Source: a virus (lineage: Duplodnaviria; Caudoviricetes). From it: a stretch of DNA of 64,000 nucleotides. Position 1 is the stretch's first letter; the number at the start of each line of letters is the position of its first letter. The translations under genes and the position numbers were made by a program. The DNA lies in the IMG/VR virus record IMGVR_UViG_3300024284_000007, positions 23,380-87,379 of that record; one strand, given 5' to 3'. Below, piece by piece: positions 500 to 49,128 of this stretch. The notes beneath the pieces are model-generated. The model saw only the letters and a list, made by a program, of their open reading frames with translations. It was not told the origin of the DNA and made no database searches.

Positions 500-844
500 A
501 TGGCTAAGGAACTCGCGTTCTCGGTAACCCGCAAGGACCTGAAGATCGAGACTTTTTCTGCGGGCGGACCGGGAGGACAGCATCAGAACACCTCCAACAC
601 GGCGGTGCGCATCACGCACCTCGCGTCAGGGGCGTCAGGAGTGGCGAGAGACTCCCGCAGCCAGCATCAGAACATGAAGAACGCCCTGCGCCGCATGGCG
701 GAATCGGGTAAGTTCAGGGTGTGGGTGAACCGGCAGCTGCTGGGGAATACCGAGCCGCCGGAGATTGCTGTACAGCGGCAGATGCACCCCTCGAACCTGC
801 TGATCATGGGCAGGGAGGAGGGGAGATGGAAGATCATCGACTAG
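500..844 (+). CDS. RF-1 (GGQ) domain peptide-release-factor homologue (ArfB/PrfH-like)
   Basis: SAGGPGGQHQNTSNTAVRITHLASG motif. ATG500 chosen because the upstream in-frame part is the tRNA-Ser gene. Confidence 0.85.
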   Translation: MAKELAFSVTRKDLKIETFSAGGPGGQHQNTSNTAVRITHLASGASGVARDSRSQHQNMKNALRRMAESGKFRVWVNRQLLGNTEPPEIAVQRQMHPSNLLIMGREEGRWKIID

Positions 845-3612: not shown

Positions 3613-4029
3613 GTGCCTTACAGGGATCCTGATCGCCAGCGCGAGTATCAACGTCAGTGGGTAGCTAGTCGGCGTGCTGCATGGTTCAAGGATAAATCTT
3701 GCGTGATATGCGGGAGTGCCGAAGATTTGGAACTGGATCATCTTGATCCGGGCAAGAAAGTAAGCCATCGCATCTGGTCATGGTCAGCAACGCGACGCGA
3801 AGCTGAACTGCTTAAATGCAGGGTTCTTTGCGGTAGTCACCATAAAGAAAAATCTGCACTGGAGCATGCAAAAGGTATCGCGAACGGGACGGCGAAGCTA
3901 ACTGAAGAGCAAGTCCGAGAAATTCGTTCTTCAGGAATGGGTCACCGACCCGCCGCTAGGGTGTATGATGTAAATGAAAAAACCATCCGGTTGATCCGGA
4001 AGGGTAAAATCTGGGGTTCCGTGGTGTAA
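3613..4029 (+). CDS. HNH endonuclease 2 with C-terminal HTH-like tail
   Basis: CVICGSAEDLELDHLDP...CRVLCGSHHKEK; KLTEEQVREIR; stop codon lies inside tRNA-Asp. Confidence 0.9.
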   Translation: MPYRDPDRQREYQRQWVASRRAAWFKDKSCVICGSAEDLELDHLDPGKKVSHRIWSWSATRREAELLKCRVLCGSHHKEKSALEHAKGIANGTAKLTEEQVREIRSSGMGHRPAARVYDVNEKTIRLIRKGKIWGSVV

Positions 4030-4087
4030 AGGTTAGCACACTACCCTGTCAAGGTAGAGGTGGGGGTTCGACTTCCCCTCGGTTCCG
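4015..4087 (+). tRNA. tRNA-Asp(GTC) with two U.U mismatches in the acceptor stem
   Basis: GGTTCCG/CGGTTCC, CTACC-CTGTCAA-GGTAG, 8-nt T loop TTCGACTT, G73. Confidence 0.75.
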
Positions 4088-4189
4088 CTGGAGGCGTTCA
4101 TGTGACGCTCATGTGGTACGAGATGCCGGAGACTGGCATCCTTCCCCGGGGGGTATCCTGGAGGGAGCTGGCGGATCACTGGCTGACCC

Positions 4190-23366: not shown

Positions 23367-23867
23367 TCAGGGGTCGTACTTGCGGAACTCGTCCCGTCCC
23401 GCATCAGCGAGAGAGCCGTCATCGACGGCTTCCTGCGTGGTCGGGCTGAGATAAGGGTGCGCGGGGATCTCCAGGACGTCGTGGAACCAGCCCTTGCGCG
23501 GGGAGCCGCTGTCCTTCCAGTGCAGCTTGTCCCTGTTCAGGGCGCTGACCACGCAGCCGAATTCGGTGACGCGGGAGTAATCGGAGTCGTTGCCGACCCA
23601 GGCGAACGCCCGGAGCCCCCCCCGCGAGGCGGGGATCCAGTACATGGCGTCGGCGAGCTTCCCGGTGGACATCGCGGGCGGCTCTCCCGGGCGGGCGCGG
23701 TGCCATGCGCCGGACGGTTTCTTCGTCCGGCGCAGGGTCACCCGCTGCGCCCGCTGCGCGATGTGCTTCGCCAGGGCGGTGGCAGCTGGCGCAGCTCCCT
23801 GGGCGGAGAGCTTGGCGACTTCCTGCCAGAGCCTGATGTTCTCCTCGAACGAGATCTCGCCGCTCAC
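23367..23867 (-). CDS. Tail-completion protein (HK97 gp10-like)
   Basis: PPAMSTGKLA, EFG, HPYLSPT-type motifs. Confidence 0.6.
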   Translation of the reverse strand: MSGEISFEENIRLWQEVAKLSAQGAAPAATALAKHIAQRAQRVTLRRTKKPSGAWHRARPGEPPAMSTGKLADAMYWIPASRGGLRAFAWVGNDSDYSRVTEFGCVVSALNRDKLHWKDSGSPRKGWFHDVLEIPAHPYLSPTTQEAVDDGSLADAGRDEFRKYDP

Positions 23868-27906: not shown

Positions 27907-28897
27907 CTAGATCGTGCGCTTGTACGGATGGCAGAGCAGTTCCGCCTCCGTGGTGAGCCCTACGACGTCGCCGCCAGTGCTCTGGGAGTGACCGCCGATG
28001 TCGTGGATGGTGGTCGTGGTGGCACCCCTGGTCAGCGCCTCGGCGGTGGCGAAGTGGATGCACGCCTGCTCAATACTGGCGGGCAGGGTGGTGATGATCG
28101 TGCCCGCCACGTGCGGGTAGACCAGCGGCGCGGACAGGCTCAGGGTCCCCGGTCCCGCCGCCGCCGACGCGGAGTTCGCGTGGACGGTCTCCTGCTGTCC
28201 GGAGTCCTTGATCACCCCGGTAGCCCCCGTGGTGCCCTGGTAGCTGGTGATGCCCCAGCCGGTGACGTCGCTGACGGACAGGGTGGTCGCGCCAGCGAGA
28301 GCGCTGGAGGTGATCTCCGCGTGCGGGAAGCCGTTGATGTAGCTCACCTGGATGACATAGCCGTTGCGCCCGAAGCACCAGTTGATGAATCCCGGTCCGA
28401 TGATGATCGCCTGCCCGCCGTAGGCGTCGGTGGCAGGCGCGACCGAGTTGAAGATCCCGAACGGGGGGTACTCCGGCTCCGCCCATCCCGTGGGCAAGGT
28501 GGTCCACTGCCGGGGCCACGTGTTGTTGGGGCACACCTGGACCTGGGTGACTTCCAGGATGGGGAAGCGGGAGAGGATAGCCCTGGCATTGGACCCGGTA
28601 TTGTTCCAGTAGGGCGTGCGGGTCGCTCCGCCTGCGCCCGGTCCGACCGTCACCCGGAAATCCGGACCCCGGAGCACCTCGATATCGACGGTGGCTCTCA
28701 GGATCTGGTTGCAATAGCTATCGACCTTGGCAGTGGCTCTCGCGCACATGTTCCACCACTCGGCTTCGTTCTGCGCGGGAGTGATGTCATCTCCTACGGG
28801 AATGCTGGTCCAGTCCTAAATCGATACCCGTAGGAGCAGTCAGGAGCGTCACCGGGGAAATGTACGGTGCTGTGATCAGCGGCATCGGGGTAGTCAT
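27907..28897 (-). CDS. Head-tail adaptor; frame interrupted by a 7-nt insert TTAGGAC (28813-28819)
   Basis: N-part MTTPMPLITAPYISPVTLLTAPTGID starts at an ATGA overlap; the C-part frame continues WTSIPVGDD...MCARATAKV. Confidence 0.75.
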
Positions 28898-29104: not shown

Positions 29105-29491
29105 TTAGCTTTTTTCCAGGTATGCAGCAAGAGCCCGCAACCTGTCCGGATCGTCGTGAGCCCATCCCAGAAGCCTATTGCAGGTATTGCACAAGATGCC
29201 CCTGACGCAGTTCTCACATCCAAATCTTCCAGGGCAGCAAGAATGATCATGGTCCACGCAGAGCTTTTCAAAAGAACCGCAGACTTGACAGCCTTGCGAC
29301 GCTGCGTACCCACGCCAGTAGGCTCTGGTCTTACCGGCGTGGGTTCTCGCATTATCGTGAGGGCGCGTAGCTTCAAGGTAAATCTCATGCGCAGCGCAGC
29401 ATTCTTCGCATCGGCAGCCACGCTTCTTGTATGTAGCGTTCTTGCCGTGACTCCAGACGCCGTTTTTGCAGCCTTCCCGGTGATTGCTCAT
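29105..29491 (+). CDS. Endonuclease VII-family (homing-like) nuclease, antisense in the structural operon
   Basis: CQVC...VDHDHSCC...VRGILCNTCNRLLGWAHDD. Confidence 0.88.
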
Positions 29492-30968: not shown

Positions 30969-31250
30969 CTATGTGCTGATGATGTAGCTGACGGTCGCGG
31001 TCTGCCCGTTCTGGGTGACGCAGAAATTCAGCCCGCCGCCCTTGGAGATCGCAGTGGTCACGAACGACGTGGGAAGCGCATTAGGCGTCAGCAGGAACCC
31101 CGTGGAGGAGGTGACTCCCGTGGCGGGTCCTACCGCCACGGTCGCGGGACCGATGTTCGCCAGGACGATGCTGCACAGTCCGGCAGGGACGGTGCACAGA
31201 GCTGTGGGGACAGTGTTGTCATAGGACAGCTGCCCGGTGATGATGCTCAT
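30969..31250 (-). CDS. Small beta-rich putative virion decoration protein (paralog family)
   Basis: Shares the V-x-G...VT...G motif with its neighbours. Confidence 0.65.
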   Translation of the reverse strand: MSIITGQLSYDNTVPTALCTVPAGLCSIVLANIGPATVAVGPATGVTSSTGFLLTPNALPTSFVTTAISKGGGLNFCVTQNGQTATVSYIIST

Positions 31251-31828
31251 CAGTTCCCGGTAGAGATAATGAAGCAGAATGACGATGCGGTGCCGTTGCC
31301 GGTCGTGGCGTAGTACGTAGCCCCGCCGACCGAGTTGTAGGCTTCCTGGCTGAGCGGGGTCACCGGGACCGGCATGCCGCTCGCGGCGGTGACCCTCGCC
31401 GATGTCCCGAGGTAGACCGCCTGGGGGGTGGTCGGCTGGTAGAGGGTGAAGTTGCTCAGCCCGGCGGGGAGGATGAATACAGTAACCGTGCTGTTAGCAG
31501 GCACCGTTGCCGTTCCCATGATCACGGACATGATTTTTCTCTGTAACGCCGTAGCAACATAAGTAACTGTCGTACTATTGCCCGTAGCTGCAATGGCATA
31601 CAGGTCCTGTCCGGGATGCAGGTGCACCTGAAATCCGTAAGGAGTAATAGTGCTATACGGATTCCCCTGGAAGAACCCCGTTGATGATGTGACGCCGGAG
31701 TCACCAAAATAGATTGCACATTGCGCGTACAGTGCACTTACTGTAACTTCGGTGATGTGTTCAGAATCTGCGGCGACAATCAAGGCAGGAGCAGAATCCG
31801 TTATACTTACCTGACCATAAGAAAACAT
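31250..31828 (-). CDS. Two tandem paralogous decoration-like units joined through an in-frame TTA
   Basis: Unit 1 is AT-rich (aa 1-94), TTA is codon 95, unit 2 starts MSVIMGT. Confidence 0.6.
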   Translation of the reverse strand: MFSYGQVSITDSAPALIVAADSEHITEVTVSALYAQCAIYFGDSGVTSSTGFFQGNPYSTITPYGFQVHLHPGQDLYAIAATGNSTTVTYVATALQRKIMSVIMGTATVPANSTVTVFILPAGLSNFTLYQPTTPQAVYLGTSARVTAASGMPVPVTPLSQEAYNSVGGATYYATTGNGTASSFCFIISTGN

Positions 31829-41087: not shown

Positions 41088-41258
41088 TTACCTGCGGTTA
41101 AGCCTGCGGGAAACCCATCTGTCTTTCACGACCATCACGTAACCGGCGTCAGTAAAGACGATCCCGTGGCGCAGCCTCGGGTTGATCCCGGCTTTCTCGC
41201 AGGCATTCAGCGCCACCGCGAGATCATGGAGAAGGAGCCTTTTCCGCTTCTTACTGAT
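41088..41258 (-). CDS. 56-aa basic ORF with an apparent ATC start
   Basis: AAGGAG-7 nt-ATC AGT AAG AAG..., overlapping the upstream stop; GC3-biased. Confidence 0.35.
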   Translation of the reverse strand: MSKKRKRLLLHDLAVALNACEKAGINPRLRHGIVFTDAGYVMVVKDRWVSRRLNRR

Positions 41259-41558
41259 GGTGGGACTCCTTCAGCCTCTCCCATTCGGCGAGGGCGGCGC
41301 GCGAGGCCGCGATCACCTCGGGGTGGACTTTCCCCTTGCCTTTCGCCCATCGCCGGGTGGCATTGACCGCCGTGGCGATGGCAGCGGACTCGCTCATCCC
41401 GTTCCGCATGAGGGCATGCGCGATGTTTTCGATGTTAAGTAGCTCGGAAGCTTCTGCTTCTCTGGAACCTTCTTGGATGGCGTATGCCACAATCCGTGCG
41501 TTCCAAGAGGATTGGGCGTTGACGCCAGTTCTGGAGTCTTAGCTGACTTTCCGACCAT
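41251..41558 (-). CDS. Capsid-morphogenesis-associated small protein; frame interrupted by a 5-nt insert TTAAC (41434-41438)
   Basis: GGAGGT RBS and ATG41558 give ...PLGTHGLWHTP...KLPSY; the second frame continues IENIAHALMRNG...AIATAVNATRRWAKG...AEWERLK. Confidence 0.7.
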
Positions 41559-41594: not shown

Positions 41595-42263
41595 ATGGAA
41601 TCTAACAAGGAATGCAGTCTTCCCGAATGCCGGAGGAAGCATGTCGCCCGAGGATACTGCAAACTTCACTACAGGCGTTTCATGGATCATGGTGATCCAC
41701 TTGTTGGCGGTCCAGCGCCCGAGAGTATTGACTTCGAGGGGAAGCGCACTTGCACACGATGCAAGGAGACAAAACTCATCGAAGAATTTGGGTCCGATCC
41801 TCGCTATCGAACCAGCCATAAGCGTATCTGCATCAAATGCATGAGTAAGACCACGATTGCGTGGCATCACGCGAACAAGGAGCGCAGTCTCAAGAACCAG
41901 AGAATCGCTCGCGTACGTCGTATCTTCGGCGAGGATGGCTTGAAGATCGAAGAGCGACGACGAGCCGGTGAAGGATGTGACATCTGCGGCAACCGGACTG
42001 TCCGCATGTCTATCGATCATTGCCATGAGACCGAACAGGTTCGCGGGCTTCTTTGCAAAGACTGCAATCTCATCCTCGGCTGGGTTAAGGATGATCCAGA
42101 CCGACTTCGGCTGATGGCGGACTATCTAGACCACTTCGCTTCTTCCAGAGTCGGTATTCAGCCTCATGTCGCATCACCTGCCGACTTCCATCCTTCAAGG
42201 GGATTTTCTGCTCAAGAAGATCTCGAAGTTTACGAAGTGCGCCATCATAGTCATCATGATTGA
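41595..42263 (+). CDS. Endonuclease VII-family nuclease with extra Zn fingers, antisense
   Basis: CSLPEC...GYCKLHY, CTRCKETK, CDICG...IDHCHET...VRGLLCKDCNLILG. Confidence 0.88.
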   Translation: MESNKECSLPECRRKHVARGYCKLHYRRFMDHGDPLVGGPAPESIDFEGKRTCTRCKETKLIEEFGSDPRYRTSHKRICIKCMSKTTIAWHHANKERSLKNQRIARVRRIFGEDGLKIEERRRAGEGCDICGNRTVRMSIDHCHETEQVRGLLCKDCNLILGWVKDDPDRLRLMADYLDHFASSRVGIQPHVASPADFHPSRGFSAQEDLEVYEVRHHSHHD

Positions 42264-47823: not shown

Positions 47824-49128
47824 TCAGAAGAGCCCGGATCGCTGGCTGGTGAGCGGCGGGACGAGAGTTGAAGTAACAGGAGTGACCTCGGCGTCCAGCC
47901 AGTAATTCTGCGCAAGACCGTCAACGTAGAGATAAGGGAACTGATCGGGACCTGGCGGGGAAACAGGCTGCGAGAACGTGCACTGACCTCGTTCCGTCGT
48001 TCCCGAGCCATTCGAGAACGGCGGGGTATTGCCTCCGCCCGCACCCAGGAACACGTACGCCAGCGATGCCGTGGACAGTCCCGGGGCTGACAGCGGACCC
48101 CATGTGATCCCGCTGCCTCCCGCTCCGGTCCCCCAGTAATTCGTAGCCGCATCCTTCACCGACCACCCGACCGGGGATGCCGCGTTATTGAACACGGATA
48201 CCTTGTAGTTGCCCGCAGGAAGCGTCACTCCGGCGAACGAGCAGGAAATCCATCCCGCACCGGCAGCTCCCGACCACGACGGGGAGTTCGTCCCCGCGAC
48301 TTTCGTCCCGGAGCTGGCTCCCTGGATCGACCATATGTCAGCTGACGTGGCGAGCTGCGTTGTTCCTGACGGGGAGTAATACCAGATCTTATTCAGCGTG
48401 CACGGCTGCGACAGGTGGAATTCCGTTCCCAGCACATAGTTGACGCCGAGGTCCGTGACCGTCGCCGGGTTCGTATCGACCTTATTCGGGTATATCCTGT
48501 ACGAGCCGGAATACGTCACGGGACCCGTATCGGTTACCTGCACGTCCACCCAGAAATTTCCCGAGTTCGACCCTGCGTTCGGCATGATCAGCGACGGGTC
48601 GGTCCCGGCGGTGGAAAACACTCCCTGCGAGGTGCCGTACGGCTCAGCCTTTGTCCCGCCGTGCACCGGCTGGTCCGAGAAAGCCGTCAGCGGCCCGTTC
48701 GTGATGCCAGCAGTATTCCCGCCGGTCCCCCAGGATCCCGCTGGTCCGCCGCCTGCGCCTGACGTGTCGGAATCCGGGAATCCCGTGCCGTTCGTGACGA
48801 ACCACCCGATCGCCGCGTTATAGGCGGTCCCGATCGCAAGGGGCACCGGGGATGCCAGTGCCACGAAATTCCACTGCCCCCGGGTGAGGACGCCGGAAGT
48901 GACCGTCGTGGCGGGAACCAGCGTCCCGGTCGCCGCGCCGTTGATGTTCCACAGCGCGCATTTCCGCGCTACGGTATCGCCGTTGGTACCGGGCACCCAG
49001 ATCCAGTACCCGCTGAACCACATTCCCCCCTGGGTGACCTCGAAGATCACCCCGGAAAGGAAATTCCCGGTATAGGAGACCGGAGACGCGGGACCATTCG
49101 TCGCGGGAAACAGCCGGTACGTAGTCAC
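47824..49128 (-). CDS. Tandem DUF4082-like beta-sandwich protein (putative carbohydrate-binding)
   Basis: Two repeats ending NFWVDVQV and NYWLDAEV; LGTEF...IWYY motif. Confidence 0.6.
   Translation of the reverse strand: MTTYRLFPATNGPASPVSYTGNFLSGVIFEVTQGGMWFSGYWIWVPGTNGDTVARKCALWNINGAATGTLVPATTVTSGVLTRGQWNFVALASPVPLAIGTAYNAAIGWFVTNGTGFPDSDTSGAGGGPAGSWGTGGNTAGITNGPLTAFSDQPVHGGTKAEPYGTSQGVFSTAGTDPSLIMPNAGSNSGNFWVDVQVTDTGPVTYSGSYRIYPNKVDTNPATVTDLGVNYVLGTEFHLSQPCTLNKIWYYSPSGTTQLATSADIWSIQGASSGTKVAGTNSPSWSGAAGAGWISCSFAGVTLPAGNYKVSVFNNAASPVGWSVKDAATNYWGTGAGGSGITWGPLSAPGLSTASLAYVFLGAGGGNTPPFSNGSGTTERGQCTFSQPVSPPGPDQFPYLYVDGLAQNYWLDAEVTPVTSTLVPPLTSQRSGLF

Follow-up and report, generated by a model that had tools for sequence, protein, structure and literature searches.

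How is a full-length virion protein made from a gene whose reading frame is broken in the middle of a highly conserved motif? The question is raised by a 64,000-nucleotide (nt) stretch of tailed-phage DNA (hereafter the window), positions 23,380 to 87,379 of IMGVR_UViG_3300024284_000007, an 87-kb IMG/VR record that CheckV rates as 71% complete. On the minus strand of the window, a gene for a putative head-tail adaptor is interrupted after its 26th codon by the 7 nt TTAGGAC. The initial annotation of this DNA, made from the letters alone, had proposed that peptidyl-tRNA-Asp stalls at the UUA codon of the insert and hops 7 nt forward onto a second Asp codon, and that virion assembly would thereby depend on the developmental state of a Streptomyces-type host. 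Here we report that the interruption belongs to a large family of similar inserts, and we argue that programmed translational bypassing, that is a short hop triggered by the slow-to-decode UUA, is the probable explanation, while the proposed tie to Streptomyces development finds no support.

There is a precedent for such a mechanism. Antonov et al. 2023 (PMC10732093), following Smith et al. 2013, described UUA-led gaps of 7 or 10 nt in three out of 100 actinophage terminase genes, namely the large terminase gene of the Streptomyces phage phiHau3 and the corresponding genes of two Streptomyces prophages. For one of these sites, the phiHau3 g6/7 junction, the peptide spanning the gap was identified by mass spectrometry after expression in E. 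coli (PMC10732093).

Results

Anatomy of the interrupted gene

Read directly on the minus strand, the adaptor ATG (28897-28895) overlaps the TGA (28896-28894) of the upstream open reading frame (ORF), and frame 0 extends from it for 26 codons, reading MTTPMPLITAPYISPVTLLTAPTGID, up to a final GAT at 28822-28820. This is followed by TTA (28819-28817), a single G (28816) and GAC (28815-28813), after which TGG ACC AGC ATT CCC, starting at 28812, opens a body of 302 codons (Table 1). Past the GAT, frame 0 continues as TTA GGA CTG to a TGA at 28789-28787 and would thus encode 36 amino acids (aa) in total. The downstream frame is closed by a TAG (28818-28816) that lies inside the insert; it is open from the GAC at 28815 to 27907, and it contains no ATG, GTG or TTG ahead of the ATG at 28749, which is 21 codons past the resume codon. 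Excision of the 7 nt restores TGID-WTSIP, exactly as found in more than 100 uninterrupted homologues of 323-331 aa. The elements on which the initial annotation was built (the TTA-led 7-nt insert that breaks the gene, the start at an ATGA overlap, the stop ten codons later in the unshifted frame, the TAG within the insert and the matched Asp codons GAT and GAC) are therefore all present in the sequence.

The same site is interrupted in nearly half of the related loci

The read-through translation of the adaptor, used as a query, retrieved more than 500 relatives, mostly of 323-331 aa, that cover it from end to end. When aligned, the uninterrupted ones read ...TAPTGIDWTSIP... or, more generally, TAPTGIDW(T/G/S)(S/T)IP, unbroken; as the initial annotation had anticipated, they carry no extra residues between TGID and W. 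Residues A21, P22, T23, G24 and D26 are invariant in 30 intact homologues, and this conservation makes extra residues arising from frameshifting unlikely. The closest homologue (P0004, contig L003) is 95% identical and reads GGC ATC GAC TGG ACC with no insert. In contrast, locus L002, which comes from another metagenome and encodes an 81% identical protein, reads GGT ATC GAT TTAGGAC TGG ACT TCC, i.e. it has the same 7 nt embedded in flanks that differ at synonymous sites. L001 carries an in-frame version of 9 nt, GAC TTACCTGAC TGG, encoding GID-LPD-W.

For a census of the junction, 64 viral and 80 metagenomic loci were fetched with patterns derived from the C-terminal half of the protein, so that the sampling was blind to the state of the junction, which was then classified by a script; 87 unique loci that include the N-terminus form the basis of all counts below. 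The gene is intact in 46 of them, whereas 41 (47%) have an insert that follows one of the codons T, G, I and D within APTGID[WF]. These amount to 28 distinct inserts, 5-26 nt long, and all three classes of length modulo 3 (0, 1 and 2) are represented. Read in frame 0, 24 types open with TTA and two with TAG (L112 and L116); two further types, GAT[CAACC(G/C)TAGGAC]TGG (insert in square brackets), are in frame and yet contain a TAG, and two of the TTA-led inserts are likewise in frame but contain a TGA (L049 and L117). Since the inserts of L049, L117, L102 and L146 are in frame and have an internal stop codon, no single +1 or -1 shift would rescue these four loci. TTAGGAC itself occurs in six unique loci from independent assemblies (the window, L002, L029, L035, L043 and L097), whose adaptor bodies fall in several different parts of the tree. 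The insert pattern is far beyond chance, and because six independent assemblies share the identical 7 nt, it is no assembly error. Two interrupted relatives (G002 and G003) are complete genomes with terminal repeats.

Proposed take-off and landing codons follow common rules

If ribosomes hop over these inserts, the last triplet of the insert should be readable by the tRNA that sits on the codon before it. In 21 of the 28 types this triplet indeed fits the take-off codon, in the sense of a match at position 2 and the same purine/pyrimidine class at position 3, while triplets ending 1 or 2 nt earlier fit in none of the 28. When landing triplets were permuted among the types (100,000 trials), the mean number of fits was 5.2 and the maximum 15 (P<1e-5). 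The matched pair noted initially for the window alone is thus part of a general tendency. The take-off codon has T (19 types) or A (7 types) as its last base in 26 of 28 cases; in the intact loci, the third base of the four codons concerned is a C in 102 of 184 cases (55%). Landing triplets, for their part, mostly end in C. This bias in codon endings fits what would be expected of a take-off from a weak wobble pair and a landing on a firmer one.

Both flanks are under selection

Among interrupted loci, the segment before the insert has a ratio of nonsynonymous to synonymous polymorphism (pN/pS) of 0.30, and over the 21 codons that follow the insert in the six TTAGGAC loci, pN is 0.26 versus a pS of 0.75. 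Purifying selection on both flanks indicates that both pieces are translated and constrained. Most of the interrupted loci have a stop codon in the downstream frame one or two codons ahead of the resume codon, with no start codon in between, and the first in-frame start lies 6-88 codons past the resume codon.

UUA is rare and has no cognate among the phage tRNAs

Even a crude set of ORFs from the 87-kb record shows TTA as its rarest sense codon. Once the inserts are taken out, 80 adaptor genes contain it only 8 times in 25,574 codons, and seven of these eight directly follow the last conserved residue of the protein (RRT[IV]; L001, L095, L076, L085, L102, L106 and L123). The phage genome encodes 35 tRNAs, including Leu-CAA, Leu-GAG, Leu-CAG and an Asp-GUC that reads both take-off GAU and landing GAC, and tRNA-Leu(UAA) is missing among them. 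It is also missing in three relatives with 35, 42 and 41 tRNAs (one of them a complete genome), despite the presence of tRNAs for other rare codons.

Several observations touch on the same subject. In five of the seven loci with a TTA after RRT[IV], the gene has no stop codon and the ORF runs on for 24-100 codons antisense into a convergent gene, which in L106 and L102 is DUF6221 and whose TAA stop is the TTA itself; a UUA at the 3' end of the adaptor gene may thus be the de facto end of translation. Two relatives of ~130 kb, G002 (L021) and G004 (L032), have no tRNA gene at all, and G002 is a complete genome in which the adaptor gene is interrupted. In L156 (G005:C1:18400-35700), where the adaptor is intact, ARAGORN reports a tRNA-like gene with the four-base anticodon 'tagg' within the tRNA array. 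Finally, the tRNA array of the window also holds genes for a PTH2 peptidyl-tRNA hydrolase and an RF-1/GGQ-domain protein, two proteins that might help to rescue ribosomes or peptidyl-tRNAs that stall at UUA.

The interrupted gene probably encodes a neck protein of an uncultured lineage

The adaptor protein matches nothing in Pfam, PHROGs or a PDB sequence profile, and Foldseek found no significant match in the PDB; the fold was placed only by a wide structural search. The closest intact homologue was modelled with AlphaFold (pLDDT, the predicted local distance difference test, 80; pTM, the predicted template modelling score, 0.80), and the model aligns over residues 6-327 with the neck adaptors of phage 812 (Z 9.3, 187 residues), a gene transfer agent (GTA; Z 8.8), Mycofy1 (Z 8.7) and Mu (Z 8.6), and with HK97 gp6 (Z 7.7, 94/96 residues); the DT57C adaptor was aligned as well. 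These Z values (7.7-9.3) are middling, and the model has an extra inserted beta-barrel at residues 187-270. By tblastn, annotated adaptors were found at 24% identity, and the gene lies downstream of portal, protease-like and capsid-like genes. On the grounds of fold and synteny, identification as an HK97 gp6-like head-tail adaptor is reasonable.

A megablast search of the region against cultured phages gave no match. Relatives in cultured phages are 26-31% identical, none above 31%, and span several phyla, and the only genome match is a metagenome-assembled genome labelled Actinomycetes, at 30% identity. A Streptomyces-type host, dependence on bldA and a developmental switch, all put forward in the initial annotation, are not supported.

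A second interrupted gene

A small gene of the head module is interrupted too, by the pentamer TTAAC (site 2; Table 1). Its ATG at 41558 opens 40 codons, the last of which is the take-off codon TAC (41441-41439), and the junction reads ...AGC TAC [TTAAC] ATC GAA..., with the resume codon ATC at 41433-41431. The insert-free reading (P0124) matches ~100 uninterrupted homologues of ~98 aa across LPAY-IQNIAHAL, and the landing triplet AAC fits TAC at positions 2-3. Among 80 related site-2 loci the same insert occurs only in L187, a diverged relative, as TAT[TTAAC]ATC. A comparison of N- and C-part identity among the site-2 relatives was uninformative, the values being ~60-70% everywhere.

Two homologues of this protein deserve separate mention. 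P0222 reads LPAYILGRFQNI, with four extra residues at the junction, and may thus carry an in-frame TTA-led insert. In the distant homologue at L223:390-575 and upstream, the frame breaks at NWV|E with a TGA, not a TTA, which could be an error or another recoding site.

Endonuclease genes and recombination breakpoints

Exactly two Endonuclease_7 genes exist in the 87-kb genome, and each of them lies directly upstream of one of the two TTA-interrupted genes. At site 2, an orthologous nuclease gene (66% identity) occupies the same place in L187 only, i.e. it accompanies the insert in 2/2 loci and is found in 0/79 intact ones. At the adaptor site the association is weak: an Endonuclease VII-like gene lies within 1.5 kb of the adaptor in 5/31 interrupted versus 2/41 intact loci, L003 has the same endonuclease gene next to an intact adaptor, and the two insert states do not differ in upstream GC content.

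The tree of adaptor bodies requires at least 19 changes of insert state. To see how the state changes, we compared the 63 nt before the motif in pairs of loci that are at least 93% identical over the 300 nt after it. Three pairs that differ in state (the window and L003, L079 and L098, L114 and L121) are 95-100% identical 3' of the insert and only 70-76% identical in the 63 nt 5' of it, whereas five pairs of the same state are 95-100% identical also in the 5' segment. The window equals L003 on both sides save for a patch of ~100 nt that matches L002; this patch, which ends at the landing codon, takes in the ribosome-binding site along with the 26 N-terminal codons and the insert. Because identity breaks at the insert, the insert state seems to change by exchange of the 5' segment and not by local indels.

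A perfect 10-bp stem, CUCCUACGGG / CCCGUAGGAG at 28791-28836 (-), encloses take-off codon, gap and landing codon in the window only. It originates from the joining of the L002-like 5' patch to the L003-like 3' part and is not conserved.

Table 1. Features of the window discussed in the text, with window coordinates
Feature	Position	Strand	Remarks
Upstream coding segment of adaptor gene	28820..28897	-	ATG + 25 codons, the last being take-off GAT; aligns with residues 1-26 of intact homologues
Non-coding 7-nt insert TTAGGAC	28813..28819	-	absent in closest homologue L003; identical in L002, L029, L035, L043, L097
Downstream coding segment of adaptor gene	27907..28812	-	resume codon TGG (28812-28810) to stop (27909-27907)
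Frame-0 stop TGA	28787..28789	-	ten codons past GAT
Small Cys-rich ORF, 66 aa	28894..29093	-	between endonuclease gene and adaptor gene; stop overlaps adaptor ATG; no match in Pfam search
Endonuclease VII family gene, homing-endonuclease candidate	29105..29491	-	Pfam PF02945, E 8.6e-14; ~210 nt upstream of adaptor ATG
Second interrupted gene, 100-aa head-module protein	41251..41558	-	between portal and protease; TTAAC insert 41438-41434
Second Endonuclease VII family gene	41595..42263	+	Pfam PF02945, E 4.2e-16; 37 nt upstream of second interrupted gene, divergent
PTH2 peptidyl-tRNA hydrolase gene	1-322 (G000:23318-23701)	+	in tRNA array
RF-1/GGQ-domain gene	515..703 (G000:23894-24082)	+	in tRNA array; adjoins PTH2 gene
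tRNA-Asp(GUC) gene, phage-encoded	4015..4088	+	reads take-off GAU and landing GAC; within 35-gene tRNA array

Discussion

A probable hop across the insert

The model that we favor can be outlined as follows. Ribosomes would start at AUG 28897 and read 26 codons, until GAU (Asp26) occupies the P-site and UUA enters the A-site. There they would pause, because UUA is the rarest codon of the phage and its tRNA-Leu(UAA) is not supplied by the phage tRNAs. During the pause, peptidyl-tRNA-Asp, held on GAU through a weak G:U wobble, would let go, the mRNA would slide by 7 nt and the same tRNA would re-pair with GAC (28815-28813), so that decoding could resume at UGG (28812) and yield a product with the normal ...TAPTGID-WTSIP... 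motif. Those ribosomes that manage to decode UUA would end ten codons on and release the 36-aa peptide. The sequences show the anatomy of the junction, its recurrence and conservation, the rules that its codons follow, how rare TTA is and the lack of a phage tRNA for it; the pause, the hop and its efficiency are what we infer. A hop is also the simplest account of all insert variants, the slow A-site codon being UUA and sometimes UAG. With its 28 inserts of like design, three length classes, TAG-led and stop-bearing members, compatible landing triplets, invariant junction motif and phiHau3-like architecture, the comparison lends strong support to the core of the hop proposed in the initial annotation, namely a peptidyl-tRNA-Asp that pauses at UUA and re-pairs 7 nt on at GAC.

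Several points speak against this model and should be kept in mind. Its support comes from sequence comparison, and in the window taken alone, a quadruplet-like reading of UUA-G followed by GAC is compatible with the logic of the frames. Strictly synonymous take-off and landing pairs are found in 9/28 types only; position-1 mismatches are common (GGT/AGC, ATT/CTC, ACA/TCA, ACT/GCC), landing of GAT on GGC would need a G:U pair at position 2, and two landing triplets fit poorly (ACA/ATT). This means either that pairing is less strict than in textbook hops or that some of these loci are defective. The two CAA-led inserts break the rule of a slow A-site codon at take-off. The gap in the tRNA set concerns phage-encoded tRNAs. 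Finally, unlike in phiHau3, where an RNA structure has been suggested, there is no conserved structure flanking the junction: 41 interrupted loci show no excess folding energy over 46 intact ones (mean z -0.05), and a structural RNA signal was dropped as a candidate for want of such an excess across the 87 loci.

Relation to known recoding sites

We read the phiHau3 record directly, where the two gaps appear as GGC[TTACTCCGGT]AAG and TCT[TTAACGGTCC]ACG. As in these sites, a frame-0 UUA immediately follows the last conserved codon, the gap is short and non-coding (7 nt here, 7 or 10 nt there), a single tRNA can read both the take-off and the landing codon (GGC/GGT and TCT/TCC in phiHau3, GAT/GAC here), and the junction falls in a highly conserved motif of an essential virion or packaging gene. 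Judged by sequence, the adaptor junction is of the same design as the phiHau3 sites, in a new gene and lineage and with far more natural variation. The genes differ, a head-tail adaptor and a small head-module protein here as opposed to a terminase, and the present phages (~125 kb) form an unrelated uncultured lineage for which bldA is not established. Three of 100 terminase genes were interrupted, as against 41/87 adaptor loci with 28 types of 5-26 nt that include TAG-led inserts and in-frame inserts bearing stops. The possible link to Endonuclease VII genes and to recombination breakpoints is likewise particular to the present phages.

Gallant and Lindsley reportedly observed in E. coli that, when the codon in the A-site is starved, peptidyl-tRNA can slide onto a matching one located a few to tens of nt downstream. 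Such hungry-codon bypassing is an induced laboratory error, whereas here the arrangement is fixed in genomes and needed for an essential protein. Programmed +1 frameshifting sites, such as CUU UGA C in prfB and CUU AGG C in Ty1, also combine a slow A-site codon with a change to the +1 frame. However, in the present case the P-site codons would re-pair poorly one base on (GAU to AUU, UUA to UAG), and rescue of the relatives would take shifts of 5-26 nt, in each of the three phases.

Alternatives to a hop

These considerations bear on the most plausible rival within the ribosome, a +1 frameshift that takes place after UUA has been decoded, such that the G at 28816 is skipped and translation proceeds to GAC UGG, giving a product ...GID-L-D-WTS... 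with two extra residues. The logic of the frames permits it, as it is the sole open path between the TAG at 28818-28816 and the frame-0 stop, and the in-frame GID-LPD-W of L001 suggests that extra residues may be tolerated at this position. We nevertheless consider it unlikely: re-pairing of tRNA-Leu(UAA) from UUA to UAG would be poor, the APTGID motif is invariant in intact homologues, the match of the landing triplet would have no role, and gaps of 5, 8, 11 and 26 nt, TAG-led gaps and in-frame gaps with stops would all be left unexplained. In addition, for phiHau3 a bypass peptide was seen by mass spectrometry, and a +1-frame stop placed in the gap did not lower recoding (PMC10732093).

Production of the adaptor without any recoding is less probable still. 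The protein could perceivably be made in two pieces, the 36-aa N-terminal peptide and a 280-aa body initiated at ATG 28749, and gene callers do annotate products of 278-282 aa (P0018, P0052, P0062, P0076 and P0100). Against this very unlikely scenario stand the 21 codons between the insert and ATG 28749, which are conserved as protein and have no start codon before them, and the scatter of the first in-frame start in the other interrupted loci (6-88 codons downstream), which amounts to no consistent internal start. Moreover, residues 10-60 belong to the adaptor helical core of the predicted fold and align with HK97 gp6-like proteins. That no full-length adaptor is made at all, the gene being defunct (a pseudogene, a defective phage or a sequencing error), we regard as the most improbable of these scenarios, even though the contig was assembled once and is an incomplete metagenomic fragment. 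An identical insert occurs in five other assemblies with diverged flanks, and nearly half of the related loci have a break in this motif, in almost every case through an insert led by the rarest codon. Purifying selection acts on either side of the insert, the interrupted relatives include two complete genomes with terminal repeats, and the adaptor is a single-copy gene of the head-tail module.

What is the insert for?

If bypassing does take place, one idea is that the insert serves as a throttle or sensor tied to the host tRNA-Leu(UAA). We think it at least as likely that the insert is an interruption which the gene tolerates and which either accompanies a homing endonuclease or gives protection from one. 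A parallel can be drawn with the T4 gene 60 gap and the MobA elements, for which Manning & Atkins described that identity breaks off at the landing codon, that a homologous but diverged segment is present, that the nuclease is frequently lost and that the insert prevents self-cleavage (bioRxiv 10.1101/2022.08.31.505936). As in gene 60, the P-site tRNA would take off and land on a matching codon with a stop or rare codon in the A-site, and a nuclease gene adjoins the interrupted gene. As in MobA elements, identity with insert-free relatives ends at the landing codon, the 5' segment is diverged (70-76% identity here, 67-81% in MobA), and the endonuclease is often lost while the gap is kept. There are also clear differences. 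The gap measures 7 nt instead of 50 nt and has no take-off stem-loop; no nascent-peptide signal is evident, the N-terminal peptide being the same in intact homologues; the nuclease is of the Endonuclease VII family, the target gene is not split into two ORFs with added tails, and the association of the adaptor site with an endonuclease is weak across relatives.

By this analogy, and compatible with bypassing, the insert could be selfish rather than regulatory, a view that may replace or complement the tRNA-dependence proposed in the initial annotation: a mobile or immunity cassette tied to Endonuclease VII-type homing endonucleases, made up of the ribosome-binding site, the 26 N-terminal codons and the insert, which would interrupt the endonuclease target in the APTGIDW-coding DNA much as the gene 60 gap does against MobA. 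The pairing of the only two Endonuclease_7 genes of the genome with the two interrupted genes, the co-occurrence of insert and endonuclease at site 2 (2/2 versus 0/79), the identity breakpoint in the three differing-state pairs, with an L002-like patch that ends at the landing codon, and the agreement with features described for MobA elements (bioRxiv 10.1101/2022.08.31.505936) speak for this reading. The weak link at the adaptor site (5/31 versus 2/41), the presence in L003 of the endonuclease gene together with an intact adaptor and the similar upstream GC content in both states argue to the contrary; besides, the breakpoint pattern comes from three pairs only and cleavage is predicted by analogy. 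On balance we take a selfish origin to be a serious possibility, albeit with odds somewhat short of even.

Implications

So far, four UUA-led bypass sites have been published; they lie in three terminase genes, and only one phage was the subject of experiments. The adaptor system would add the same device in a different essential gene of an unrelated lineage, with 28 natural variants at one site and a second site in the same genome. This series of variants suggests rules for short hops: a slow A-site codon (UUA or UAG), a take-off codon ending in U or A, a landing triplet mostly ending in C, pairing mainly at positions 2-3 and gaps of 5-26 nt in any phase. That such hops may be tied to homing endonucleases and recombination breakpoints bears on the question of why bypass inserts exist at all. 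There is also a practical side, as gene callers truncate or split genes of this kind, such that databases list products of 278-282 aa for an adaptor of ~327 aa.

A broader reading, which we offer tentatively and think more doubtful than not, is that UUA is kept as a free 'punctuation' codon in this lineage of large soil phages, with TTA-led gaps that allow interruptions of essential genes to be tolerated and cassettes to spread together with Endonuclease VII-type homing endonucleases. It is prompted by tRNA sets of up to 42 members that lack tRNA-Leu(UAA), by the PTH2 and GGQ genes and by the near-confinement of TTA in adaptor genes to junctions and gene ends. If true, the gap would protect its carrier from cleavage, as in T4 MobA/gene 60 and with a far simpler signal, and small cassettes consisting of a ribosome-binding site, an N-terminal exon and a gap would spread by gene conversion.

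As for further interruptions in this genome, a genome-wide script for TTA- or TAG-led breaks was too noisy, missed known sites and was left unused. Inspection of the 5' end of the portal gene revealed no TTA break, and a candidate break at window position 48818 (+) turned out to be antisense to a real gene. The TTA at 31546 was rejected as a break, as it is a mid-ORF codon (31544-31546 on the minus strand, GCG TTA CAG) located within a 192-aa ORF (31250-31828) whose frame is continuous, and its presence there is either ordinary or unexplained.

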